Positions 3,911 to 45,700 of a DNA stretch of 64,000 bases are shown here, piece by piece. The stretch spans positions 3,231,970-3,295,969 of the forward strand of contig OZ241920.1 of the NCBI GenBank assembly GCA_965203885.1, written 5' to 3'. The notes beneath the pieces were generated by a model, which saw nothing but the letters and a program-made list of their open reading frames with translations, was not told the origin of the DNA and made no database searches. The stretch's first letter is position 1, and the number at the start of each line of letters is the position of its first letter. The DNA comes from a bacterium (GTDB lineage: Bacteria > JAAXHH01). The position numbers and the translations under genes are program-made.

Positions 3911-5314
3911 ATGCTTCGAGTTGCGACGCTGCTTTGCGCGGCCGCCCTGAGCTGGTACGCGCAACCGGCGCAGGCCCAGGCAGTGACCCAGGAAACGCTC
4001 CTGAACGCGTACTACGACCTCTGGCACGAACTGGGCAGGCAGCCGACTTCGGGGGAAGTCGAGGCGCAGACGCCCTATTCCGCCGGCCGTTACCTGGAGG
4101 TCTGGGAGGACTGGGACGGCGTTCGGCAGGCGCTGGTCGACCATCTGTACCAGAGAGCGCTGTTCGCGGCGCTGCAGCAGGACACGGATACCGCCACGGA
4201 GTTCTATCAGAAAATCCTGGAAATCGATCCCGATCATCCGGAGGCGAATTCGGCTTACGGGATCGACCTGGATGAAGCGGCGGGAAGACGCGCCGAATTC
4301 ACCGTGGAGAAAGCCGGATCGCCGGCGATGTCTTCCTTTATGACGTTTCTTTCCTTACGCGCCCAGGGCGACGGACAGGGGGCGCGCGACTACTTCATGC
4401 TGGCACAGAGCCAGAAGGCGCAACACGTCGCCTCGGAGACCGCGAAGCTGAAGGAACGGTACGACAACGCCGTCGCGCTGTATGAGGGGGGATCGTACAC
4501 GGAGGCGATCGAACAGTTCCGGTTGTTGATGGAAACGAGACCGAACCAGATAGGCTACGATGAAATCTACCGTCCGAACGCCGACGCCATCCGGCAGTAC
4601 CTGGAGGACGCCATCGCGAAAAACGTCGCGGCACGCGCCTCCAGGATCGTATCCATTTCCGATAATTCCAGGTTCTCGGTGTGGATCACCGGCAACTGGA
4701 TGGCGCAGATGGGCGAAATGGGACTGCAGGGAACTCACCTGAGATACGTCCCGACGGGCGAGTTCAACCAGCTGGCCCTGGGGCGTGTGCCGCTCCCTGG
4801 CGACATGAAGCTGGCGCCCAATTCCTACCTGGGAGGCGACCTGGGCGTATCGTTTCGCGTTACGGACTTTCTCTGGGCCGGCGCCGCCTGGTCACAACTG
4901 GTACTGACGCCCTACGCCGAGCTCTCCATGGGCAGCCTGGAAGGCTCCCACAAATTGCCGGAGGGTTCGATTTCGGCCATTTCGGTCTTCGTGGAACCGT
5001 CCACGATGATCTCGAATACGATGCGTGTATACGCGCAGGCGGGCGTGGGACGCTACAGCATCGATTTGCCGGATGCCAGCCTGGGCGCCTCGGGCGCGGG
5101 AAGTCTGCCGAGGTTGTCGTCCCACAAGAGCGCATCGATCGGGGGGTACCTGGGCGGTGGATGCAATTTATGGTTCCTGGCCACCGAAAGCGGGCTGCTG
5201 GGGCTCCGGCTGGATGCGAAGTACCATCTTACCAGGGGGACCGACGGCAGTACGGATCGAACCGTGACACTGGGCGGTGTGCGGCTCGGCGCCGGCCTTA
5301 CGTTCTCGATGTAG
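3911..5314 (+). CDS. Secreted protein with an N-terminal signal peptide, a TPR-like helical region and a beta-rich C-terminal half (possible outer-membrane protein)
   Basis: MLRVATLLCAAALSWYAQPAQA-QA signal peptide. No catalytic motifs recognised. C-terminal half is rich in alternating hydrophobic/Gly residues. Confidence 0.5.
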   Translation: MLRVATLLCAAALSWYAQPAQAQAVTQETLLNAYYDLWHELGRQPTSGEVEAQTPYSAGRYLEVWEDWDGVRQALVDHLYQRALFAALQQDTDTATEFYQKILEIDPDHPEANSAYGIDLDEAAGRRAEFTVEKAGSPAMSSFMTFLSLRAQGDGQGARDYFMLAQSQKAQHVASETAKLKERYDNAVALYEGGSYTEAIEQFRLLMETRPNQIGYDEIYRPNADAIRQYLEDAIAKNVAARASRIVSISDNSRFSVWITGNWMAQMGEMGLQGTHLRYVPTGEFNQLALGRVPLPGDMKLAPNSYLGGDLGVSFRVTDFLWAGAAWSQLVLTPYAELSMGSLEGSHKLPEGSISAISVFVEPSTMISNTMRVYAQAGVGRYSIDLPDASLGASGAGSLPRLSSHKSASIGGYLGGGCNLWFLATESGLLGLRLDAKYHLTRGTDGSTDRTVTLGGVRLGAGLTFSM

Positions 5315-5420
5315 CGGGCGTTACGTGACGCGTTCGATGTAGCCGGTCTTACCTGACGTGTTTGATGTAGCGGGCCGCACGTGGCGCGCTCGATGTAGCG
5401 GGTCTGTCGTGCCGCGCTCT
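5301..5420. repeat. Four tandem 28-30-bp direct repeats (core TCGATGTAGCGGGNC); the first copy contains the stop codon of the preceding gene
   Basis: cgttctcgatgtagcgggcg... / cgttcgatgtagccggtc... / tttgatgtagcgggccgc... / ctcgatgtagcgggtctg... Confidence 0.8.
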
Positions 5421-8805: not shown

Positions 8806-9663
8806 TCACCCTCCCCCCGACACGCCCCTGAGCCGGTCCCATTCCGCCAGGTACGCGGCCAGGTGTCCGTTCTCCGGGGATTGCGCCTTCTCCTCGAGCA
8901 TGGACCGCACCAGGTCCTGTTCGTCCCGGTACTGATCGTCGTTGAAGAACCCGGCGAAATGGGCGATCCGCAGCCATACGAGGTAGGTCGTCACGGCGTC
9001 GTGCTGGTTGTACTGCGCGATGCGCCGGATATCGCCGTCGAGCCAGGACTCGGCCACGCTGCCGCCGTCGAAACCGTCCATCTTGCCCGGTATGCCCGAG
9101 AGCACCGACATCTCCTTGAGGGAAGGGCGCGCCTTGCCCCACTCTCCGATGGCCGTCATCAGGTCCACGTTCCACTCGCTCGCCCGCGAGAAGTAGTCGT
9201 AGCCTTCCCAGGGCTTGTCCGGCCGCTTGCAGAACCCCGGCGCGGTGATGCCCTTGATGATCCCGCGCTGGATGATGATCGGCAGGTCCGATCCCGAGGA
9301 ATTGAAGCCGACGAGCTGGGGCAGGCGGCGGCCCACGCTCTCCAGGAACCGGGACAGGATCGTGGCTTCGTCGCAGTCGTCGGGGTTTTCGGGGTCCCGG
9401 GGCTGCACGCGCAGGCCGACCGATACCCCGCCCCCGGGTTCCTCGCTCCGGGTCACCATGGCGATGGAGACCAGGCGGGACATGGCGTACTTGAGGAAGG
9501 GCCGCGGCGCTTCCTCCGTGGCGCCGTTTTTGCGCCACATCTCGTGGACGACTTCCCGATCGGGCATGTCGGGCGGCAGGTCGTAGAGCAGGCGTCCCGC
9601 GTCGGGGTCCGGGACCCATTCGGCGTCGAAGGCCCATACATGGTTCATTACGCTTTTGAACAT
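8806..9663 (-). CDS. DEDDy 3-prime-5-prime exonuclease of the PolB-exonuclease-like family (COG3298-type)
   Basis: Exo I FDAEW, Exo II FNSSGSDLP, Exo III YNQHD motifs in the expected order and spacing. Confidence 0.55.
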   Translation of the reverse strand: MFKSVMNHVWAFDAEWVPDPDAGRLLYDLPPDMPDREVVHEMWRKNGATEEAPRPFLKYAMSRLVSIAMVTRSEEPGGGVSVGLRVQPRDPENPDDCDEATILSRFLESVGRRLPQLVGFNSSGSDLPIIIQRGIIKGITAPGFCKRPDKPWEGYDYFSRASEWNVDLMTAIGEWGKARPSLKEMSVLSGIPGKMDGFDGGSVAESWLDGDIRRIAQYNQHDAVTTYLVWLRIAHFAGFFNDDQYRDEQDLVRSMLEEKAQSPENGHLAAYLAEWDRLRGVSGGG

Positions 9664-9682
9664 GGTGTGGTCTCTCGTGTTT

Positions 9683-9760
9683 TTTCGGCCAGTTCGTGTA
9701 TATCCGGCCGGTTCGTGTTCATCCGGCCAGTTCGCATTTATCCGGCCAGTTCGTGTTTAA
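9683..9760. repeat. Four tandem 19-bp direct repeats (ATCCGGCCAGTTCGTGTT), 20-95 bp upstream of the exonuclease start
   Basis: tttcggccagttcgtgtat / atccggccggttcgtgttc / atccggccagttcgcattt / atccggccagttcgtgttta. Confidence 0.8.
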
Positions 9761-9923
9761 CCGGAAGGTGTGAACGCTTATCCGATTCGGCGCAGCTTTG
9801 TGGAGGAGCCGCTCGAGTCCGGGCCGAGAACCGGTGCCGGCCGCTGGGACGCGCATATGCCCGGTGCGGGAGGCGTCCCTGCCCGGTGTGGGAGGCGTCC
9901 CTGACCCGCTCGAGTCCGGGCTG

Positions 9924-11821: not shown

Positions 11822-13228
11822 ATGACCGCGGAAAAACTGATCATCGACTACGTAAACGACCAGGACGACAACCTGTCCCAAATGGCCAAGGACATCTGGG
11901 ACCATCCGCAGATCGCGTTGGAGGAGACGTACGCGTCGGCCCTGCAGGCGAAGGAGCTCGAGGCGGACGGCTTCTCCGTCGAATGGGGCGCAGGGGGGAT
12001 GTCCACGGCCTTCGTCGCCACCTGGGGCTCGGGGGATCCCGTCATCGGGTTCCTGGGCGAGTACGACGCATTGCCGGGCCTGTCGCAGACGGTGTCGGCG
12101 GAACGGGAAGTCATCGATCCGGGCGGTCCGGGCCACGGCTGCGGGCACAACCTCTTCGGCACGGCGTGCCTGGGCTCGGTGAAGGCCCTGAAGCGCGCGA
12201 TGCAGCAGGACGGCATCGGCGGCACGATCCGGTACTACGGCTGTCCCGCGGAAGAGCAGGTGGTGGGCAAGGTGCTCATGGCGAACGACGGCGCCTTCGA
12301 CGATCTCGACGCCGCCATCACCTGGCATCCCGGCGCGACGAACGTGGTCTGGAACGGTTCCTCGCTGGCGCTCAACTCGTTCAAGGTGAACTTCCACGGC
12401 GTGGCCGCCCATGCCTCGGGCGTGCCGCACCAGGGACGCAGCGCCCTCGACGGCGTGATGCTGATGGACGTGGGCATGAACTACCTCCGGGAGCACGTAA
12501 TCCCGGAGGCCCGCATCCACAGCGTGGTGACGAGCGGCGGGGAGGCGCCGAACGTGGTGCCCGCCTTTGCCCAGGTGTGGTACTACATCCGGTCGCCCAA
12601 GCGCGCCGAGGTGGACGAGATGTACGAACGGGTGCTCGACATCGCCCGGGGCGCCGCGCTGATGACCGGCACAACCCACGATATCGAGTTCATCGGAGGC
12701 GCGTACGAGGTCCTGCCGAACGGCACGATCTCCGACCTGATGCTGCGGAAGATGCAGGCCGTGAACGATCTCGCCTTCACCGCCGAGGAGCGGCGCTTCG
12801 CCCGGCAGCTCCAGGCGACGTTCCCCGATAACGCGATCCGGATGGCCTACGAACGGATGGAGAAATCGACGCAGCCGGAATCTATTGCCGAGAGTATCGA
12901 GAACCCCCTCTGGACCCAGGTGCTGCCCCATTCCGACACGCCGCCGCACGTGGAGGGTTCGACCGATGTGGGCGACGTGAGCTGGATCACGCCCACCGGA
13001 CAGATCACGACGTGCTGCTGGCCCCTGGGCACGCCGGCCCACAGCTGGCAGATGGTGGCGTCCTCCGGTTCGAGCATCGGCAGCCGGGGCATGCTCTTCG
13101 CGGCCAAGGCCCTGGCGCTGACGGGCCTCGACCTGTTGCGGGACCCGGACCTGCTCAGACGGGCCAACGAGGAATTCGACGAGGCGAGGGACGGCAAGAC
13201 GTACAAGAGCGCGCTGCCGGAGGAGTGA
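11822..13228 (+). CDS. abgB: M20D-family amidohydrolase, p-aminobenzoyl-glutamate hydrolase subunit B (AbgB)-like
   Basis: GEYDALPGLSQ, GHGCGHNLFG, YYGCPAEE and WHPG blocks align with AbgB. Start at MTAEK (11822). Confidence 0.75.
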   Translation: MTAEKLIIDYVNDQDDNLSQMAKDIWDHPQIALEETYASALQAKELEADGFSVEWGAGGMSTAFVATWGSGDPVIGFLGEYDALPGLSQTVSAEREVIDPGGPGHGCGHNLFGTACLGSVKALKRAMQQDGIGGTIRYYGCPAEEQVVGKVLMANDGAFDDLDAAITWHPGATNVVWNGSSLALNSFKVNFHGVAAHASGVPHQGRSALDGVMLMDVGMNYLREHVIPEARIHSVVTSGGEAPNVVPAFAQVWYYIRSPKRAEVDEMYERVLDIARGAALMTGTTHDIEFIGGAYEVLPNGTISDLMLRKMQAVNDLAFTAEERRFARQLQATFPDNAIRMAYERMEKSTQPESIAESIENPLWTQVLPHSDTPPHVEGSTDVGDVSWITPTGQITTCCWPLGTPAHSWQMVASSGSSIGSRGMLFAAKALALTGLDLLRDPDLLRRANEEFDEARDGKTYKSALPEE

Positions 13229-13398
13229 GGGCCTGCGGGAGCGAAGGTCCGATGGGTGAGGATCTGACAGGCCGAGGATCAGATCGTTTAGGCCCGGACG
13301 GGTGAGGCCTGCGGGAGCGCGCTGCCGGAAGGCTTTGGGACGAATTGGCCAGGACTGACGAGGTACGGACTGGCGAGGACCGGATTTATGAGGACCGG

Positions 13399-14220
13399 AT
13401 GACGATTACCATTCCGAAGGTGGATATACCCCAGGATGCCGGCGACCGGTACCGGCGCGACGGCTTCTATCTCGCTCCGCCCATCATCCCAGCCGATCTG
13501 ATCGAGCGCGTGACCGAGAGCATGGACCGGGTCATGGCCGGCGAGTACGAGACCGGGGAACCTCCGCGCCGATCGTGGAACCCCGGCGACGACCCGAAGC
13601 GCATCCGCAAGATCGACCAGGCGCACCTGTCGGACCGTACGATCTACGAACTGGCCTCGCACCCGGAGATCGGCCGCTGGGCGGCGGCCCTGCTGGGCGC
13701 GGAACGGGTCCAGCTCTGGGCGTCCCAGATGCTCTACAAGCCGCCGGCCGGCCCGGGCGGCTCGGGCGGTTCGAGCGTCGGGGTGACGGGCAACGTCGGG
13801 TGGCACCAGGACAAGCAGTACTGGAAATTCCTGGACGGCGAGCTGTACACGGCGTGGGTCGCCGTGAGCGACGTGACCGGGGAGTCCGGGCCCATGCGGT
13901 TCCTGCGGGGTTCGCACCGGTGGGGCCTGCTGGACAGCGGCGACTTCTTCGGGCACGACCACGAAGCCCAGCGAAAGGGCATCCCCGTGCCGGAGGGAGA
14001 AGCCTGGGACGAGGTCGAGGCGGTCCTGCCGCCCGGCGCGGTCAGTTTCCATGACCGCCACACCTACCATGCCAGCGGGCCGAATGTATCGAACGCGCCG
14101 CGCCGGAGTTTCGCCTTCCACCTGCGGACCGAGCACGCACGGCCGGTCGAAGGGCGGGACGACTACTACGTGCAGCACCTGGACGATCCCGCCTATTGTC
14201 CGGTGCTGTACGAGGCGTGA
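13399..14220 (+). CDS. Phytanoyl-CoA dioxygenase (PhyH) family Fe(II)/2-oxoglutarate oxygenase
   Basis: WHQD (HxD) motif and PhyH-type N-terminus RRDGFYL. First ATG at 13399 with GAGGA 4 nt upstream (track start is TTG). Confidence 0.7.
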   Translation: MTITIPKVDIPQDAGDRYRRDGFYLAPPIIPADLIERVTESMDRVMAGEYETGEPPRRSWNPGDDPKRIRKIDQAHLSDRTIYELASHPEIGRWAAALLGAERVQLWASQMLYKPPAGPGGSGGSSVGVTGNVGWHQDKQYWKFLDGELYTAWVAVSDVTGESGPMRFLRGSHRWGLLDSGDFFGHDHEAQRKGIPVPEGEAWDEVEAVLPPGAVSFHDRHTYHASGPNVSNAPRRSFAFHLRTEHARPVEGRDDYYVQHLDDPAYCPVLYEA

Positions 14221-17600: not shown

Positions 17601-19271
17601 GCGCCCCTGGAGCGGCGCATCCATTTCGAACGGGTGCATCCCCGGGGTCGGTTCGAGCCGGCGGAGGAAATCCCGGCCGAGGTGAGACGCAACCTGGAGA
17701 AGAGTTTTCAGTCCGCAACCGGCGCGTCCGCTACTGACGGTGCGGCTGCTGCGACCACCGAGGCCGATGCATCGGACGGTGCGACCAGTGCATCGGTCGC
17801 CGCGTCTGACGGCGCGTCCGGCCCTGACGCGTCCGCAACGGAAGAGGCCGCGCTGGTGGAACTGATGCGGGGGAGGCTGGAGACCCTGGGACCGGTCACG
17901 GCGGCCGGGCTGGCCGCGTCCATCGATCTGCCGGTGGGCAGGATCGAACAGGCGCTGTCCGCGCTGGAGCACGAGGGATTCGTCTTCAGGGGACAGTTCT
18001 CGCCGGACGCGGACGGGCTGGAATGGTGCGAGCGGCGGCTCCTGGCGCGGATCCACCGCTTCACGATCACGAGGCTCCGCCGGGAGATCCAGCCCGTTTC
18101 ACCCGCCGACTTCATGCAGTTCCTTTTTACCTGGCATCACCTGGCGCCCGATACCCGGCTGAAGGGGCCCGACGCCGTGACTGCGGTGCTGCGCATGCTC
18201 GAAGGCGTGGAAGCGCCGGCGGCGGCGTGGGAGAGCGAGATCCTGCCTTCCCGCGTTTCCGACTACGACTATGCCTGGCTCGACAACCTGTGCCTCTCCG
18301 GCAAGTACGCCTGGGGGCGGCTCCGTCCCCACCGTTCGAACGGCGAGAACGGGAAGACGGCCGGTCCGATCCGGACGACGCCCATCGCCATCGTGGACCG
18401 GATGAACCGGTCGCTGTGGATGTCCCTGAGCGGCGTAACCGGCGAGGAAGACCTTCCCCTGTCCACCTACGCGAAGACGGTCCTGGACCTGATGACCCGG
18501 CAGGGCGCGGTGTTCTTCGACGACATCGTCGCGCAGGCGGGGATCCTGCGCACCCACGCCGAGGAGGCCGTGGCGGAGCTGGTCTCGGCGGGCATGGCGA
18601 CCTCCGACAGTTTCGCGGGACTCAGGGCCCTGCTGGCGCCGACGCGTCACCGGGAGTCCCGGCGGGGACGGGAACGGGTCAATCCCTTCGACCTGTCGAC
18701 GGCGGGACGGTGGGGGCTGACTTCAAGGACCCCGGAGGAAGGCCGCGGGGAGGAGGATCTCGAGGCCTACGCCCGCGTCGCCCTGGCCCGGTACGGCGTG
18801 GTGTTCCGGCGGCTCACGGAACGGGAGAACGCCTCGCCGCCGTGGCGGGACCTGGTGCGGGTGCTGCGACGCATGGAAGCCCGGGGAGAGATCCGCGGCG
18901 GCCGGTTCGTGAACGGCGTCTGGGGCGAGCAGTACGCCCTGGGCGAGGCCGTCACCCTCTTGCGAAGCATCCGCCGGAAAGAGAAGCAGGGCACGCTCGT
19001 CGCCATCAGCGCGGCCGACCCGCTGAACCTGGTCGGGATCATCACCCCCGGCAGGCGCATTCCCGGGATCACGAACAACCGGATCCTCTACCGGGACGGC
19101 GAACCGATCCTGATCATGGAAGGCGGCGAAATCAGGGAGGCGTCCCCGGTGGCGGCCGAAGAACAGTGGGCCTTGCGGCAGGAACTGGTCAAGCGGGAGT
19201 TCCCGCCGAAGCTGAAGGCCTATCTGAGCGGCCGGCGCCCCCGGGAAAAGACCGCCGCGCAAAAGTCCTGA
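14625..19271 (+). CDS. lhr: Lhr-family large ATP-dependent DEAD/DEAH-box helicase
   Basis: 1548 aa. N-terminal motifs [24 protein letters not shown]. Overall length and architecture match Lhr. Carries acidic/Gly low-complexity insertions. Confidence 0.85.
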
Positions 19272-19387
19272 CGCGCGCGGAATGCGCGCGGAATGCGGAC
19301 CGGCGTCCAGATGCCCGGGCGCTCGATCTTCTTATTTCAAATGAGCACGCTTTCAAAGGCTGCTAAGGCCCGTCTGGGACGGCTAGC

Positions 19388-29503: not shown

Positions 29504-30586
29504 ATGCCCATCATGCCAGGCAGGCCCGTCATGTCCAGCCCGATCACCAAAGCCATCGAACAGTTCCCCCGGGTCCGGCTGGGCCATGGGCCGACGCCCC
29601 TCGACGCCGCCCCGCGCCTGGGTGCGGCCCTCGGCATCGAGCTGTGGATCAAGCGCGACGACTGCACGGGGCTGGCCATGGGCGGGAACAAGGTCCGCCA
29701 GCTCGAATTCCCCCTGGGCGAGGCGCAATCCCGGGATGCCGACACCCTGCTGATCACCAGCGCGGTACAGTCGAACTACGTCCGCGTGGCCGCCGCCGCC
29801 GGCCGCCGGCTCGGCATGGAGACCCACATACAGCTGGAAGAGCGCGTGCCGGAGGCGGACGCCCTCTACCGCACTTCCGGCAACGTCCTGCTCGACCGGC
29901 TCTTCGGCGCGAAGCTCCATTCCTTCCCGGTCGGCGAGGACGAGCCCGCGGCGGACGCGTCGCTGGACCTGCTTGCCCAGTCGCTCGCGGAGGAAGGCCG
30001 CAGGCCCTACGTGATCCATCTCGCCCCCGCCCATCCGCCCCTCGGTGCGCTCGGCTACGTGATCGCGGCCGAGGAGGTCCTGGCGCAGGCCCGATCCCTC
30101 GACCTCGAATTCGACGCCGTGGTCTGTCCCACGGGCAGCGCCCTGACCCACGCGGGGCTCCTGGTGGGCCTGCGGGTCCTGGGCAAGGACGTGCCCGTTT
30201 ACGGCATCTGCGTGCGGCGCGATGCCGCCAGCCAGGCGGCGCGCGTAGAGATAGTGGCGGAGCGGCTGGCCGGGATGATCGAACGGCCGGAGGATTTCGA
30301 CGCGGGCGACGTAGCGGCCTTCGACGGCGTCCTGGCGCCCGGCTATGGCCGGCTCAACGACGCGGTGGGCGAGGCGATCGCCCTGGCGGCCCGCCAGGAG
30401 GGGCTGCTCCTCGATCCGGTCTACACCGGCAAGACGATGGCGGGCCTGATCGAACACGTGCGCTCCGGCGTCATCCCTTCCGGCAGCCGCGTGCTCTTCA
30501 TCCATACGGGCGGCCTGCCGGCCCTGTTCGCCTACGGGGACAAGCTCGGTTCGTGGCTGTCGGACGTGCCGTGGGACGGGGTATAG
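29504..30586 (+). CDS. PLP-dependent ACC deaminase / D-cysteine desulfhydrase family enzyme
   Basis: GGNKVRQLEF motif, typical of the ACC deaminase/DcyD family. ATG at 29504 with an AGGA Shine-Dalgarno. Confidence 0.7.
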   Translation: MPIMPGRPVMSSPITKAIEQFPRVRLGHGPTPLDAAPRLGAALGIELWIKRDDCTGLAMGGNKVRQLEFPLGEAQSRDADTLLITSAVQSNYVRVAAAAGRRLGMETHIQLEERVPEADALYRTSGNVLLDRLFGAKLHSFPVGEDEPAADASLDLLAQSLAEEGRRPYVIHLAPAHPPLGALGYVIAAEEVLAQARSLDLEFDAVVCPTGSALTHAGLLVGLRVLGKDVPVYGICVRRDAASQAARVEIVAERLAGMIERPEDFDAGDVAAFDGVLAPGYGRLNDAVGEAIALAARQEGLLLDPVYTGKTMAGLIEHVRSGVIPSGSRVLFIHTGGLPALFAYGDKLGSWLSDVPWDGV

Positions 30587-30752
30587 CCATTGAAGACAGT
30601 GTATAGCCATTTATTTTGAGCGCGTATTGAATGGATTTCGTATATTGCGTTGGATGAGTGACTTCAATTGCGCCCTCCCGCACCGGACCGTCAGGAAGCC
30701 TTCCGGATGGGCGGTATCTTCGGGTCCGGGGAGGCGACACTGAAAAGGGGAT

Positions 30753-36840: not shown

Positions 36841-37008
36841 AGGGCCGGGTTGTATCTTAGCGGGCGTCCGGACCCGGCGGACCTGGTTTTGACGGTCGCC
36901 CGGCCGCCCGGACGGTTACCCGACGCAACGAAATATCCACCCAGATTACCGGACTACAGCTTCCCGGACTGCAGGGAGCGAAAACCCGAATCGAAAAGGA
37001 CCCTGACC

Positions 37009-39075
37009 GTGTCAGTGAACGATCTCGAGCAACGCTGCATCAACACCATCCGCATGCTGGCCGTCGACGCCGTTCAGCAGGCCAACAGCGGCCACCCGGG
37101 CCTTCCCATGGAAGCCGCGCCCATCGCCTACGTGCTGTGGACGCGCATCATGCGGTACAATCCGAAGAATCCGGACTGGCCGGACCGGGATCGCTTCGTG
37201 CTCTCCGGCGGGCACGGTTCCATGCTGCTCTACGCCATGCTCCATCTCACCGGCTACGACCTGTCCCTCGACGAGATCAGGAACTTCCGGCAGTGGGAGA
37301 GCCAGACGCCCGGCCATCCCGAATACGGCGACACGCCCGGCGTGGAGACCACCACGGGTCCCCTCGGCCAGGGCATCTCCAACGCCGTGGGCATGGCCAT
37401 GGCCGAGGCCCACCTGGCGGCCCGGTACAACCGCGCCGGCCACGAGATCGTCAACCACCACACCTACGTCATCGCCAGCGACGGGGACATGATGGAGGGC
37501 GTCGCCTCCGAGGCCTGTTCCCTCGCGGGACACCTCGGACTCGGCCGGCTGATCGTCATCTACCTGGACAACAGCGTCACGATCGACGGCGGGACGGACC
37601 TGGCCTTTTCGGAGAATACGGGCCTGCGGTTCGACGCCTACGGCTGGCACGTACAGCGGGTCATGGACGGGAACGACCTGGCCCGGGTCGAAGCCGCGGT
37701 GGAAATGGCGCGGAACGAGACCGAACGGCCCTCGATCATCATCTGCCGCACGGTTATCGGCTACGGCAGCCCCAACAAGGCCGGCACATCCAAGGCCCAC
37801 GGCGAGCCCCTCGGCGCGGAAGAAGTGGAGCTGACAAAGCAGAACCTCGGCTGGCCGCAGTCGCCGAAGTTCCTGGTCCCCGATGACGTGCGCGCCTTCT
37901 TCCGGCAGATGGTCCTGTATGGAAAGGGATGGGAGCTGGCCTGGCGCCAGAAATTCGAGGCCTACGCGGCCCTGTTCCCCGGACTCGCGGAGACCTGGAA
38001 GCGGGCCATGGACGGCGAGCTGCCGGCGGGATGGGACGAGGACCTGCCGGCCTTCCCGGCCGACCAGGGGGACATGGCCACGCGGCAGGCGTCCGGCGTG
38101 ACCATCAACGCCCTGTCCCAGCGCATCCCGGGTCTGCTGGGCGGTTCGGCGGACCTGGCCGGGTCCAACAACACCATGGTGGAGGCCGAGACGAACTACG
38201 CCGCCGGGAACCACGGCGGCCGCAACCTGCACTTCGGCGTGCGCGAGCATGCCATGGCCGCCGCGCTCAACGGGATGGCGCTCCACGGCGGCCTGCGTCC
38301 CTACGCCGGCACGTTCCTCGTATTCTCGGACTACATGCGCCCGGCCATCCGCCTGGCGGCCCTGATGGGCATCGCGCCGGTCTACGTCTTCACCCACGAC
38401 AGCGTGGGACTGGGCGAGGACGGTCCGACCCACCAGCCCATCGAGCACTACATGGCGCTGCGGGCGATCCCCAACCTGACGCTGATCCGTCCCGCCGACG
38501 CGGCGGAGACCTCGGAAGCCTGGGTGGCGGCGCTGCGGCGCACGGACGGTCCCGTCGCCCTGGCGCTGACCCGGCAGAAGCTGCCCGTGCTGGACCGGGC
38601 GGGACTCGCATCCGCCGACGGCCTGCACCGGGGCGCCTACGTCCTTGCCGACGGGGACGGTAGCGGCGACGCGGCCGGTGACGGGGGCGGCGACGCGAGC
38701 GGCGACGCGGCCACCGACCCGGACGTGATCCTCATCGCCTCCGGTTCGGAAGTCTGCCTGGCCCTCGAGGCCCGGGACGCGCTGGCCGGCGAAGGGGTGG
38801 CCGCGCGCGTGGTCAGCATGCCGAGCTGGGAGCTGTTCGATGCGCAGAGCGCGGAATACCGGGAGTCCGTACTTCCGTCGTCGGTCACCGCGCGCCTCGC
38901 CATCGAACCGGGCGTCACGCTCGGCTGGGAGCGGTACGTGGGACCGCGGGGCGACGTCATCGGCCTGGAACGCTTCGGCGCCTCGGCCCCCTACGACGTC
39001 GTGTTCGAGCACCTGGGCTTCACCGCCGCCAACATCGCCGGCAGGGCGAAGGCGTTGGTTGCGGGCGCGGGATGA
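37009..39075 (+). CDS. tkt: Transketolase
   Basis: [22 protein letters not shown], thiamine-diphosphate and pyrimidine-binding blocks. GTG start at 37009 with AAGGA 8 nt upstream. Gly/Asp-rich insert near 38650-38720. Confidence 0.85.
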
Positions 39076-39186
39076 CCGGCAAGCGCGTAACCGCAAGGCG
39101 CCTCTGACGACCGCCGAAATCGCGTGGCCGTCAGGCGGTGACCACAGGCGTTGGTTGCGGGCGCGAGATGATCAGGACCCGGCTTA

Positions 39187-40191
39187 CTAAAACCCCACCT
39201 CTTTAAACACCTCCAGCGGTAATTCCTTCTCCAGGTCCTTGAAGTACTGGTAGTTGGTATCGACTACCCGGTAACCCATATTCGTGTACAGGAGAATCGG
39301 CCGGGGGCTGCCCGTGTTCGCCTGGGTAGTCGCGTGCCGGTACCCGAGCCGGCGCATCTCCCGCAGCAGGATCTCCATCATGTACCGTCCGAAGCCCTTC
39401 CCCTGCTCCCCCTCGCTCACCCTTCCGCCCACCGGGCTGCCTTCGATGGAGAACCAGGGGATGTAGAAAGTTTCCTGCGCTTCGGGCGCCCGGCAGAAAT
39501 CACCGAGCGACTGGGCGAACCCCTGCCCGATGCACTGATCTCCGCGGAAGAGCTGGAACTCCATGTTGGGCAGCCTGCCCCGGCCGGGCCTGGTTTCGAA
39601 GCGCGGGGTCACTCCGGCATCCGGCAGTTCGGGGTCCGGAACGGAAAAATCCGGGAGTTCGAGGAGGATGATGCCGCGTGTTATGCGGTAATCGTTCATG
39701 CTGAACAGGGCGCCCACGTGGCCCATCCTGTCGGACTGGAACCCGTGGCAGAAGCGGTAGAACCGGTAGCCGAAGTAGCTGAAGGCCCGTATCTGGCTTA
39801 TGCCGAACCCCCGCAAATGGGCTTCCGCCGCTTCCAGGAGCGCCTGGCCCGCCGGCCGCGCCCCCGCCCGGTAGTGGAAGAACCGGATGAGGCCGATCCG
39901 GTCCTTCAGCAGTTCCTCGATGGGATGGAGCCCGACGCGGTCGTACTCCTCGCCCTTGCGGCAGACGGCCACGTGGGCGAATCCCGCGACGGCGCCGTCG
40001 TCGTCTTCCGCCACCAGGAAGGACTCGTCCGAAAGGTCCTCGTAGGGTTCGTCCCTTTCTTCGTGCCAGCGGACCCCGGTCTCGAATTCATCCGACGAGA
40101 CGGGGTAGCAATACGGCATGGCCGCGAACTGATCGTTGTAGAAATCCTTTAATTCGGACGCCTGTTCGATTTCGAGGGACTTGATTTTCAT
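39187..40191 (-). CDS. GNAT-family N-acetyltransferase (two tandem GNAT-like halves)
   Basis: Acetyl-CoA-binding-like segments in both halves. ATG at 40191 with an AAGGAA Shine-Dalgarno. Confidence 0.55.
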   Translation of the reverse strand: MKIKSLEIEQASELKDFYNDQFAAMPYCYPVSSDEFETGVRWHEERDEPYEDLSDESFLVAEDDDGAVAGFAHVAVCRKGEEYDRVGLHPIEELLKDRIGLIRFFHYRAGARPAGQALLEAAEAHLRGFGISQIRAFSYFGYRFYRFCHGFQSDRMGHVGALFSMNDYRITRGIILLELPDFSVPDPELPDAGVTPRFETRPGRGRLPNMEFQLFRGDQCIGQGFAQSLGDFCRAPEAQETFYIPWFSIEGSPVGGRVSEGEQGKGFGRYMMEILLREMRRLGYRHATTQANTGSPRPILLYTNMGYRVVDTNYQYFKDLEKELPLEVFKEVGF

Positions 40192-42710: not shown

Positions 42711-45700
42711 CTACCGGAACCTCCAGTTCAGGATGACGTCCAGTCCGGGTTCCGGTATCACCCGCCTGGCCGACGGCAACGACACATCGGAACCCGGCCC
42801 ATCATTCAGCAGTCCCCGCACCGCGCCGGATGCAGGATCCAGCAACAAGACCGCCACCGGGTCATCTCGCCCGTTCAGCGCAACGACACCCTCCGGACCG
42901 GAAAACGTGATCCGTTCCAGCCGCTCCGACCAGTCCCGTCGTATCGGTAGAGCGAAAGCGAAGGCACCTCCCTCGCCGTCCCCGATCTCGGCCATGCCGA
43001 AGGACAGGCTGAACAGCGTACGGCCGTCCGTGGCGGTACCGGTGATCCGGTAGGGACCGTCCAGTCGCGATGTATAAGGAACCGCGTCGACCACGAAAGC
43101 GGGTTCGAGGACCGGGTCACCCATTTCGTTTACGCCGCCCCACAGCAACAGGCTCGGCGCGTTGAAATTGGAAGCCGTAGCCAGAGAAGCTTCCTGGAAG
43201 AGGCGGTACCCGGCGGCCTTGGTGAAATGGTAGTCGCTTATCCATCGGGGATCGCAGTACGTCATCAGGTCCGGGGTGTCCGGGCTGACCAGCGTCCCAT
43301 CCAGCAGATCATACCCCCAGTTCCCGATGGATCCATCGCTCTGTGGAAAGTCGGGATCGGGTCCCACGACACTTCCGCAGGGGGCGTGCAGAAGATTGAA
43401 ATTGTGGCCCAGTTCATGGGCGATCGTCGGTCCATGGAGAACCGAAATAGACACGTTCCCGGGCAACAAGCCCCACCCGGCCCCGTTTCTGAGCACGCCC
43501 ATGTAGTGTCCGCTCGCGCCTTCCATGGTGCTTATCATGGTAGTCAAACGGATCAATTCATTATGGTTTTCCCACGAGGGGTCGACCGATATCGACACGG
43601 GGTCGTGCACGTGAAGCTCGATTTCCTTCACGGGCAAAAGGTCGCGCGTATATCGGAACAGGCCGGAATCCTCCGTCAACCCCTCCAGCCGCATCAGGAT
43701 CGATCGGTCGGGATGTTCGGTCCAGAGAAAGGGAATCATGGTAAGCTTGAGGGGCGGTACTTCCCGCACGTCGAGCACCATACGACCGGAGGACGGCAGG
43801 CGGCCGGCGATGCCGAGAGCGGGATCGGTCGCGCCGTCAGGATCGATCTCGACAACCATTTCCGCGCCGGGCGCCAGGACCCTTCCCGGCACCGGCGCAT
43901 TTGCCGAAGCGGAAAGGTCTCCCTCGTCGATCTGTTGCGGAATGGAGACGCCCCCGCCAGGGATGTCCGTGGAGAACACCTCGGCACCGTCCTGGTAGAA
44001 AGTGGCCCGGACGAGGGGCATGGACACGTCGGCGTCCGTATCCCGCGTGACGAACACGCGCAGCAGCGCGTCCTTGCCGGCGACCAGGGGCACCGGGTAA
44101 TCCAACGACTGCGTCGCCTGCGTCAGGTACGCCGTCATCCCGGCGTCGCCATCGACACATAAGGCAACCCGGCTGTTCGGTATCGTCCGCAACCAGTCCT
44201 GGAATCCAGGGTCCGCCGGTGCGCATAACCCCGTTCCGTCGAGCAGCAAATCATCCAGGCCGAGTCGGGTCAGCGTCAACGGCAATGCACCGGACATTCC
44301 CGTGTTTTCCGTAAGACCCAGCGTCTTTAGTTCGGCAAGATCTCCCAGGCTCCGCGGCACATTACCGGAAAGCTGGTTGTGCGAAAGCCGTAAGACCTCC
44401 AGTTTTTCGAGTCGCCCGATTTCCGTCGGAATCATCCCGGTTAACAGGTTGTGATCGAGCGATAGAAACACCAGGCTGCCCAGATCTCCGATTTCAGGCG
44501 GGATCTCACCATCCAGCCGGTTGTTACCGAGTTCCAGGTCTTCGAGCCTGCCAAGCCGCCCGATTTCCGCGGGAATCGAACCGGTCAGGCTGTTATCGCT
44601 GAGATGTAGAATCTCCAGTTCCTGTAGTTGTCCGATTTCCGGAGGGATCGGCCCCGTCAGGTTATTGTGATCAAACGTGAGGCGGCTGAGCTGCTTGAGT
44701 TGTCCGAGTTCGGGCGGGATCGGCCCTTCCAACTTGTTCTCAGTTAGAAACAGAATCCAAAGGATGGAAAGCCGTCCGATTTCCGGTGGAATCATTCCCG
44801 TCAGGAAATTGCGGTGCAGAGACAGGTTCTTAAGCTTGCCGAGTTGTCCGAGTTCGGGAGGGATCGGCCCCGATAACCTGTTCTGGTGAAGGTCCAGTGA
44901 ACGCAGGTTGCCAAGTTGACCCAGTGACGCGGGTATCGATCCGGATAGCCTGTTCTCGGCGAGCAACAGGGCATCCAGGTATTCAAGCCGTCCAAGTACC
45001 GGCGGGATTTCTCCCGTCAACTGGTTCTTGTAGAGAGACAGCGCCACGAGGTTGGTCAGCTGGCCCAGTTCCGGTGGTATCGAACCCGTAAGCTCGTTGA
45101 AGCTCAGCACGAGGAACCGGAGCTTTGCGAGTTGCCCGAGTTGCGGAGGAACGGCCCCTGTCAGTTGGTTATCCGTCAGCAGCAGGGATTCCAGGTCGCC
45201 CAGCTGCTGAAGATCCGGCGGGATGGTACCCGAGATCTGGTTTTCGCCGAGATCGAGATACCGGAGTTGTACGAGTTGTCCCAATTCCAACGGTATGGTT
45301 CCCCGGAGGTTGTTGGCCTTCAAAATGAGCTCGATCACCTGTCCGTCGGCATTGGTCGTCACCCCATGCCAGCTTCCCAGCGGTTCGTCGCTCAGCCAGT
45401 TCGCGCGGCGGTGCCAACCCGGTCCATTCATGCTGTTGTAAAGAACGGACAAAGGGTAGTAATCCCTTCGGGGGTCGGTGCATTCGTCGACGGTCGCGTT
45501 CGAAATCCCGCCAATCCATTGCTCGAACACCTGGACCGGTGGAGCGCACAGTTGCGTCCCTTCCAGATCCAGATCATCAAGGGCAAGTTTCGTGAGCGCA
45601 TGAGGCAAGGCGCCGGAAAGGCCCGGGTTGAACGAGAGATTCAGCGTTCGAAGTGCCGTAATGTCGCTCAACTGGCTGGATATCGATCCGTTCAGGTTAT

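Follow-up and report, generated by a model that had tools for sequence, protein, structure and literature searches.

The window, that is the whole 64-kb stretch of DNA analysed, belongs to an uncultured lineage of MAGs, mostly named Gemmatimonadota, that probably forms short tandem duplications often. The transketolase gene, tkt, occupies an open reading frame from 36850 to 39075 on the forward strand and ends with a TGA stop codon at 39073-39075. Judged against relatives, which are 84-89% identical and carry the Pfam domains Transketolase_N, Transket_pyr and Transketolase_C, the true start probably lies near 36991. Repeat finders detect in-frame tandem repeats of 12 and 24 nt on the same strand in the inter-domain linker (38652-38712). 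The length of this linker is variable among relatives, and members of a cluster with at least 90% identity span 655-722 aa. Convergent to tkt, on the reverse strand, is a gene for a GNAT-like acetyltransferase of 334 aa (39187-40191), the stop codon of which reads CTA on the forward strand (39187-39189). The syntenic 334-aa gene in relatives gives faint matches to Acetyltransf.

The spacer between these genes contains a second copy of the tkt terminus. The last eight codons (ALVAGAG) with the TGA, at 39050-39075 (AGGCGTTGGTTGCGGGCGCGGGATGA), recur on the same strand at 39146-39171 (AGGCGTTGGTTGCGGGCGCGAGATGA) with 25 of 26 positions identical. The downstream copy is non-coding, differs by one G to A change and also ends in TGA. 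The first-pass annotation had placed such a duplicate about 95 bp downstream and this is confirmed; the spacing, start to start, is 96 nt or 32 codons, and the local alignment score of 24 compares with 8.5 ± 1.4 when the spacer is dinucleotide-shuffled 500 times (p ≤ 0.002). The second copy does not represent an in-frame read-through extension of tkt, as three in-frame stops intervene. The copies are separated by 70 nt (39076-39145) and the spacer concludes with 15 nt, tcaggacccggctta (39172-39186), that align with the whole 15-nt tkt-GNAT spacer of one relative, L084, and also with the distal spacer ends of L083, L088 and L089.

The head-to-tail placement of copies that characterizes a tandem array is only partly seen at tkt, where two good copies enclose 70 nt of unrelated sequence. 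A plain 96-nt tandem duplication was rejected because sequence offset by 96 nt is unrelated outside the 26 nt. The intervening 70 nt resemble the tkt end of the window no more than chance allows (p = 0.97), which leaves a reading as decayed copies of it without statistical support, and with no other copy on either strand of the 64-kb window they do not constitute a repeated element. Their alignment with the L086 spacer is weak (score 16, p = 0.028), and they are possibly an old, decayed array. With the shared portion limited to 26 of the 96 nt, and the segment unlike both flanks, an extra step such as insertion, recombination or gene conversion has to be invoked. Ectopic conversion inside an old array may have created the young distal copy, a history that would give the R-X-R arrangement of two repeats about an unlike segment.

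Recombination between strains would produce the same arrangement by a different route. DNA from a related strain might have replaced tkt up to a point inside the incoming downstream spacer, with an illegitimate join just upstream of the resident tkt end that left the resident last 26 nt and the original 15-nt spacer. Such a scar accounts for a segment unlike both flanks, for its weak alignment to the spacer of another lineage (L086) and for the downstream copy being contiguous with 15 nt orthologous to the entire L084 spacer. The affinities of L081 also change across the junction, this relative being among the closest in tkt (90.5% over the last 330 nt) and the most distant in the GNAT gene (86.2% and 82.4%), whilst those of L083 are reversed. 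However, differences in rate could account for these shifts, which come to a few percent over stretches of 330-600 nt; L086 is not the closest relative across the final 330 nt of tkt (85.1%); and the other six sites described below are ordinary tandem arrays where no such event is needed. On balance we consider a recombination scar unlikely.

A unique 70-nt insert flanked by direct repeats might also suggest a small mobile or integrated element, either a MITE with its target-site duplication, an attL/attR pair or the template and variable repeats of a DGR. The sole mismatch, G in the gene copy and A downstream, is in the direction expected of DGR mutagenesis. DGR repeats are about 100 nt or more, with differences confined to template-repeat adenines. 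A single G/A difference at tkt is uninformative in that respect. The repeat, at 26 nt, is far below DGR length, and the Pfam matches of genes within 10 kb in the syntenic relatives contain no reverse transcriptase family. As with att-flanked integrative elements, the 3′ terminus of a gene occurs as two direct copies, of which the upstream one completes the gene; unlike those elements, the 70 nt between the tkt copies hold no ORF, integrase or cargo, no integrase occurs within 10 kb in any syntenic relative, and similar duplications are found here at promoters and inside genes. The insert lacks terminal inverted repeats and a second copy in the window or the related loci compared. The flanking repeats vary in length from site to site (11-47 nt), which does not match the signature of any one transposase. 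On anatomy and neighbourhood the DGR, att-site, CRISPR and transposon target-site-duplication readings were rejected, and an element of any of these types is very improbable.

Among relatives the tkt-GNAT spacer ranges in length from 15 to 149 nt, and decayed copies of the tkt end are present inside it in most of them. Such copies reach significance at p ≤ 0.002 in the window, L086 and L087, and at p = 0.014 in L083, whilst weaker copies, in register directly after the stop codon, occur in L081 and L088-L091. In L087 the 3′ end of the GNAT gene is duplicated too.

Similar duplications had been described at the stop codons of six other genes in the window. All six repeats are real, although that at lhr abuts the stop rather than covering it. 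TRF and a diagonal scan detect arrays at 5305, 13352, 19273, 58467, 63945 and many other sites; those that follow are read on the forward strand. At 5305-5419 a 28-nt unit occurs 4.1 times, each copy with GATGTAG, the first copy supplying the last codons and TAG of gene 3911-5314. This gene encodes an AAA_14/DUF4143 protein, the C-terminus of which is unlike that of both relatives. Direct reading and a repeat finder place the end of the abgB-like gene (stop 13226-13228) and partial downstream copies at 13207-13332; two segments of it are repeated, one of 15 nt at +108 and one of 14 nt at +76, and L093, the closest relative, has at least five decayed copies of this gene end. An 11-nt unit (GCGCGCGGAAT) present 2.3 times at 19273-19297 begins 2 nt after the lhr stop codon (19269-19271). 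In the PALP gene, of the ACC-deaminase family, the TAG stop is covered at 30581-30611 by GTATAGCCATT-gaagacagt-GTATAGCCATT, the copies being 20 nt apart. This site is also R-X-R in form, with no mismatches in 11 nt and five in 9 nt. The junction of the acpH stop and solA start is duplicated at 58467-58535, where GATGGGTAACCA occurs twice, 31 nt apart, and with it ATGGGTAA; copy 1 holds the acpH stop (58498-58500) and copy 2 the solA start (ATG 58524). Finally, an 8-nt unit (2.8 copies) and a 21-nt unit (2.1 copies) lie over and after the cysS stop (63955-63957) at 63945-64000, where they are cut by the window end. Start codons are involved as well. A 15-nt unit copying the ribosome-binding site (RBS) and start codon of the PhyH gene (GAGGACCGGATGA) is present 3.7 times at 13352-13405, with the true ATG at 13399, and RBS and ATG arrays precede PhyH in L094 as they do in the window.

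The number of such features is well above chance. At the scale of the window a shuffled control, as the first-pass annotation had proposed, returns 0-1 local direct-repeat clusters in block shuffles against 30 per 64 kb observed. The repeats are specific to particular lineages. A background of 80 unrelated bacterial loci, taken from the contig search with tkt in which, among the matches listed, the relatives are 55-63% identical, averages 0.057 clusters per kb, about eight-fold below the window, and densities in the window's relatives run from 0 to 0.43 per kb, those of the L084 and L088 types having few repeats. Assembly artefact was rejected, the same kinds of array with decayed copies being present in independent ENA, NCBI, Logan and JGI assemblies.

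Clusters are spread over all classes of position, at 2.2 per kb in non-coding and 0.22 per kb in coding DNA. They touch 14 of 38 spacers and 14% of non-coding bases lie inside them. Within coding sequence, as in VNTRs, the best period is a multiple of 3 in 11 of 12 clusters, the exception being at an uncertain gene start.

Are the duplications directed to the ends of genes? The first-pass annotation had considered them the outcome of a systematic process at 3′ ends, slippage at termination hairpins for example, or an element or enzyme that targets stop-proximal sequence. Some preference for stops is apparent. Six clusters in the window, one of them doubtful, overlap a stop codon compared with 2.5 ± 1.4 under random placement, a marginal excess (P = 0.028). 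Pooled over 230 kb, 11 clusters touch stops and 3 touch starts (binomial p ~0.06), a count in which start calls are unreliable and the tkt orthologues are not independent. Sites above the 99th percentile of a permuted null comprise 8 of 120 gene ends, none of 123 starts and 2 of 354 internal positions, and the tkt end itself has been duplicated repeatedly, in several lineages. This excess of stops over starts is nevertheless only borderline and dependent on uncertain gene calls. It can be explained by selection, though it could be a real 3′-end bias.

Other observations argue against a dedicated process. Of the window's 18 non-coding clusters, ten are purely intergenic, six touch a stop and two a start, so the majority have no contact with a stop codon, and arrays are present at promoter regions, over the RBS and ATG on the start side and within tkt itself. 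The tkt spacer folds no better than shuffled sequence (z -0.3 and -0.9), displays no terminator-like site or hairpin and, in common with the whole window, has no Rfam match at gathering score; terminator and structured-RNA readings were rejected on these grounds. The units share no motif. When 23 units were compared pairwise (253 pairs), with either strand and every rotation allowed, the mean similarity score was 5.90 against 5.72 for shuffles and the maximum 12 against 16. The earlier view that this is not a generic REP family is thus upheld, the units being site-specific, and nothing points to an element directed at stop-proximal sequence. Of the hairpin-slippage proposal the slippage survives, duplication of that type being the most plausible, whilst the hairpin does not, at least at the tkt spacer. 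A process dedicated to 3′ ends now appears improbable.

Relatives reveal the ancestral state at some sites and the pace of change at others. In L096 (88% identity) acpH and solA overlap by 8 nt, with ATGGGTAA undisturbed, and the repeats at the end of cysS are absent. In L095, at 96.5-97.4% nucleotide identity to the window, the acpH/solA junction carries about 94 nt more array. Copy number at this junction therefore progresses from none in L096 to two in the window and more in L095, a difference between close genomes that is typical of VNTRs. At the PALP stop the window has a 20-nt insertion that is absent from L081. The one clean polarised case is in L081, where a perfect 14-nt tandem duplication, TGATGGACAGTTGA twice, lies across the stop codon of an FGGY gene; none of the five other genomes compared, the window included, has it. 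Here there is microhomology, TGA both preceding and ending the 14-nt unit.

The same comparisons bear on whether the arrays are retained for some benefit, in separating convergent or overlapping genes, and so reducing transcriptional or translational interference, or as arrays of binding sites. The convergent tkt-GNAT spacer is expanded in every relative except one, duplication resolves gene overlaps, and units that contain an RBS are iterated upstream of PhyH. Against this, copies decay to near-random sequence with no conserved motif or structure, their number varies between strains that are 97% identical, and L084 functions with a 15-nt spacer and L096 with an 8-nt overlap. We judge a selected function to be decidedly unlikely.

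The closest known counterparts are the close direct repeats and short tandem duplications of intergenic DNA in prokaryotes, which Huang & Mrazek 2014 (PMC4060949) surveyed. Like the repeats in the window, these are locus-specific, tens of nucleotides apart, strongly intergenic rather than in genes, and put down to slippage or tandem duplication, after which the copies diverge and become interrupted. There are differences in that the density here is some eight-fold above the mean of the unrelated loci, many arrays can be traced to the stop or start region of the adjoining gene, and 70 nt of unrelated sequence separate the two tkt copies. Achaz et al. are said to have proposed, in 2002, tandem duplication as the origin of close direct repeats.

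There is also a resemblance to the VNTR or minisatellite loci of bacteria, in particular to the mycobacterial MIRUs, which, as reportedly described by Supply et al. in 1997, are located between operon genes and contain short ORFs reaching into the stop and start codons on either side. In both cases tandem units of tens of nucleotides lie at gene junctions, overlap the stop and start codons of the neighbours and vary in copy number between close strains, here the window and L095. MIRUs, however, are one dispersed family with a consensus, whereas each unit here derives from its own flanking gene. Neither a consensus across loci (253 unit comparisons) nor a palindrome or hairpin at the tkt spacer, nor a target-site duplication of fixed length (lengths 11-47 nt), of the kinds that mark REP/BIME, MITE or MIRU sequences, was observed. 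The simple sequence repeats of contingency loci share the presumed strand misalignment at repeats and the restriction of coding arrays to in-frame periods; their units, though, are 1-6 nt whereas those in the window are much longer, without evidence of phase-variable switching.

Short tandem duplications of local origin are numerous in the intergenic DNA of this bacterium, and the copy of the tkt end is one of them. It is thus a feature of known kind that appears to be an ordinary by-product of mutation, not the work of a stop-codon-specific mechanism. We consider it likely that the by-product is of frequent short local tandem duplication, with units of about 8-100 nt, filtered by selection. 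Slippage is probably the source. Slipped-strand mispairing at short direct microhomologies would generate a tandem duplication, and the resulting arrays would then expand, contract and decay further. Purifying selection would remove harmful duplications, with survivors confined to spacers, to in-frame positions in tolerant protein segments or to gene boundaries. When a stop codon is duplicated the upstream copy would serve as the intact gene end and the downstream copy become new non-coding DNA. Between overlapping genes, or genes with very little spacer, only duplications that span the boundary would be harmless, and gene ends would for these reasons repeatedly bud off new spacer DNA. The tkt-GNAT spacer may have grown in this manner from about 15 nt to the 44-149 nt found in different relatives, and the junction duplication would have resolved the 8-nt overlap of acpH and solA. 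A stronger version, in which the spacers have largely budded from adjoining stop and start regions by a lineage-specific, unusually active duplication process with R-X-R forms and a real 3′-end bias, and in which overlapping genes have been drawn apart by the same budding, is possible but doubtful.

No new mechanism is revealed by this result, which instead informs on how compact bacterial genomes gain non-coding DNA. A duplication at a gene boundary costs nothing, keeps both genes and makes a spacer free to decay; it also parts genes that formerly overlapped and so removes translational coupling. Since in this clade such arrays make C-termini, start sites and spacer lengths differ among strains that are 97% identical, caution is advisable with any gene end or start that is called close to an array. 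If budding with a 3′-end bias were true, then gene termini would be the main source of new non-coding DNA in this organism and an unusual property of replication or repair would be indicated.

The open reading frame of tkt, the transketolase gene, ends at position 39075, with its TGA at 39073-39075. The last 26 nt (copy 1, 39050-39075, AGGCGTTGGTTGCGGGCGCGGGATGA) are present again at 39146-39171 (copy 2), with a single G>A difference and a start-to-start spacing of 96 nt. The alignment score is 24, compared with 8.5±1.4 for 500 dinucleotide shuffles of the spacer (p≤0.002), which confirms the duplicated gene end described in the first-pass annotation. It is copy 1, including the TGA, and not copy 2 that is joined to the gene. 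The 15 nt 3′ of copy 2 (tcaggacccggctta) align with the entire 15-nt spacer of the related locus L084 and, in three others (L083, L088 and L089), with the spacer's distal end. Copy 2 therefore occupies the place expected of an undisturbed tkt end.

The nearest tkt proteins display 84-89% identity and derive from metagenome-assembled genomes, which, where a source names them, are mostly given as Gemmatimonadota and once as Zixibacteria; the G+C content of the window is 64.6%. Relatives keep the gene order FGGY kinase, tkt, a convergent 334-aa GNAT-like gene (39187-40191, - strand in the window), Fic and a beta-lactamase-family gene. In the window 111 nt separate the tkt stop from the GNAT stop; the corresponding interval is 15, 44, 48, 60, 77, 89, 90, 90, 110 and 149 nt in ten relatives. 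The spacers of L086 and L087 (p≤0.002) and of L083 (p=0.014) contain decayed copies of their own tkt end that reach significance; in L087 there are about four, and one closes with TAA, the stop of that genome's tkt. In L081 and L088-L091 the best matches, individually not significant (p 0.10-0.26), lie directly 3′ of the stop in the same register. The GNAT 3′ end is also doubled in L087 (12205-12225), a fossil CTAAAACCC being followed 16 nt on by the functional TCAAAACCC. The presence of both kinds of copy shows that the spacer was built, at least in part, from the two convergent gene ends, in repeated rounds spread over a long time. None of the relatives examined has an integrase or reverse transcriptase near the tkt locus. 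The termination hairpin suggested as a cause receives no support at tkt, where the spacer contains no terminator-like site and folds no better than shuffled sequence. The FGGY-tkt spacer of L087 (9857-9958) holds an array of three 34-nt units that is not seen in other relatives.

A plain 96-nt tandem duplication is ruled out at tkt, as the 70 nt between the copies resemble neither the sequence 96 nt upstream nor that 96 nt downstream. Nor does this segment match the end of the window's tkt (p=0.97) or any other part of the window. The L086 spacer aligns with it over about 63 nt (score 16, p=0.028), weakly suggesting that it may be an old, decayed array. How could a nearly perfect copy come to lie distal to such a segment? 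One candidate is ectopic gene conversion, with the gene end overwriting a member of an old array; another is a recombination scar. The nearest relative changes across the tkt/GNAT junction, with L081 at 90.5% over the last 330 nt of tkt as opposed to 86.2% and 82.4% in GNAT, and L083 showing the reverse affinity. Such a shift is compatible with recombination near the junction, although it is not strong evidence for it.

Duplications at other gene boundaries can be polarised by comparison with relatives. At the FGGY stop a perfect tandem of TGATGGACAGTTGA (two units) spans the stop codon in L081 alone, with TGA both before the unit and at its end, and these flanking triplets give it what appears to be the classic signature of slippage. 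At the PALP stop the single GTATAGCCgtc of L081 corresponds to GTATAGCCATT-gaagacagt-GTATAGCCATT in the window. The acpH and solA genes share an 8-nt overlap (ATGGGTAA) in L096 (88% amino acid identity); in the window the junction is doubled, the acpH stop coming from the first copy and the solA start from the second, and L095 (96.5-97.4% nucleotide identity to the window) has about 94 nt more array at the same place. In L093 (92% amino acid identity) gcgctgcc.ga.gagTAG is repeated at the abgB stop in at least five decayed copies, the most distal and longest of which keeps the TGA and flanking bases that the window and L094 show at the end of the gene. Starts are also involved, since arrays of a unit comprising ribosome-binding site and start codon, GAGGACCGGATGA, occur at PhyH in the window and L094. 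Three genomes (window 3911-5314, L093 1-1257, L094 4506-5927) each have their own, unrelated C-terminus in the AAA_14/DUF4143 gene, and the window ORF terminates within the first 28-nt unit of an array. Upstream of this gene L094 (1-4341) carries imuB-like (IMS family) and dnaE2-like error-prone polymerase genes that are missing at the corresponding position in the window and L093.

A diagonal scan for local repeats (offsets 8-150 nt, score ≥14) yields 30 clusters for the window and 0-1 for eight block-wise dinucleotide shuffles. The density is 0.47 clusters per kb, against 0.057 in 80 unrelated bacterial loci (1.22 Mb) and 0 to 0.43 in relatives. Twelve clusters lie within genes, 11 with a period divisible by three. 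The tkt inter-domain linker (38652-38712) likewise carries in-frame 12/24-nt repeats; its length and sequence differ in every relative (P0001-P0022), for example as DRADRADR or GLASTSGLAPADGL repeats, and among proteins sharing at least 90% identity the length runs from 655 to 722 aa. The other 18 clusters fall in 8.3 kb of non-coding DNA. Clusters touch 14 of 38 spacers and take up 14% of the non-coding bases.

The best-kept non-coding repeat of the window is a 47-nt segment repeated with 98% identity 72 nt apart (49973-50091), between the - strand genes 49063-49914 and 50121-51680; TRF also assigns it a 37-nt period, which points to higher-order duplication of a two-unit block that already existed. 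A 19-nt unit (TCGTGTTTATCCGGCCAGT) is present 4.7 times at 9675-9764, in the divergent promoter region between 8806-9663 (- strand) and about 9798 (+ strand), and could be an array of regulator binding sites. Long, well-preserved intergenic arrays at L081 18633-18842 (8-nt period, score 92) and L083 14360-14515 (20-nt period, score 105) indicate that other clade members bear large non-coding tandem arrays, at different places. A 1548-aa ORF (42711-47357, - strand) contains long internal arrays of 72/144-nt (44413-44956 and 46268-46450) and 9/18/54-nt repeats (46861-47280) and looks like a large repetitive surface-type protein. It has no orthologue at the same position in the tkt-region relatives, where the beta-lactamase-family gene directly precedes Peptidase_M24; in L083 two short unannotated ORFs lie between these genes.

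Are stop codons a specific target, as first proposed? Repeats are present at all six further genes named, although that at lhr (19273-19297) begins 2 nt past the stop and not on it. Ten of the 18 non-coding clusters are at neither stop nor start, six (one doubtful) are at a stop and two at a start. Random placement of the 18, mostly at non-coding positions, predicts 2.5±1.4 stop overlaps (P=0.028 for the six seen) and 2.6 start overlaps. Pooling the window with eight related loci (230 kb) gives 28 intergenic, 11 stop, three start and 27 coding clusters. When the last 30 nt of each gene are compared with the next 120 nt, matches above the 99th percentile of a permuted null occur at 8/120 gene ends, 0/123 starts and 2/354 internal sites, with the caveat that four of the eight ends belong to tkt orthologues and that start positions are called unreliably. 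Stops thus show a modest surplus over starts, but the majority of non-coding repeats lie away from stop codons. The proposal of a stop-codon-specific process accordingly finds only partial support.

The units at separate sites are unrelated, 253 pairwise comparisons being no different from shuffles. This excludes a family of REP, MITE or MIRU type, in line with the earlier view that no generic REP family is involved, and Rfam gives no match anywhere in the window. Arrays with decayed copies are seen again in independent assemblies of four origins, which rules out assembly artefacts.

The simplest account is that short tandem duplications arise at a high rate in the lineage and that purifying selection acts on them. 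An intragenic duplication would be lost unless in frame and tolerated, whilst one internal to a spacer would be neutral. A stop-spanning duplication would likewise be neutral, the upstream copy preserving the gene and the downstream copy turning into spacer. With a spacer of 15 nt or with overlapping genes, no duplication could be neutral unless it spanned a boundary, and gene ends would therefore seem targeted. Start-spanning duplications occur too; they are likely less often tolerated, because upstream copies of the ribosome-binding site and ATG are added, and are also harder to score. Arrays already present would favour further misalignment, which would explain recurrence at the same junctions. 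We infer that slippage produces the duplications and that selection makes stops and starts differ.

VNTR loci such as the mycobacterial MIRUs overlap flanking stop and start codons, and the window repeats resemble them in this respect; unlike in MIRUs, each unit is locus-specific. A non-exhaustive literature search found no paper on the un-overlapping of genes through junction duplication. The duplications are a further example of an already known kind of feature, in which two points are worth noting: the unusually high repeat density of the lineage and the interrupted form at tkt.
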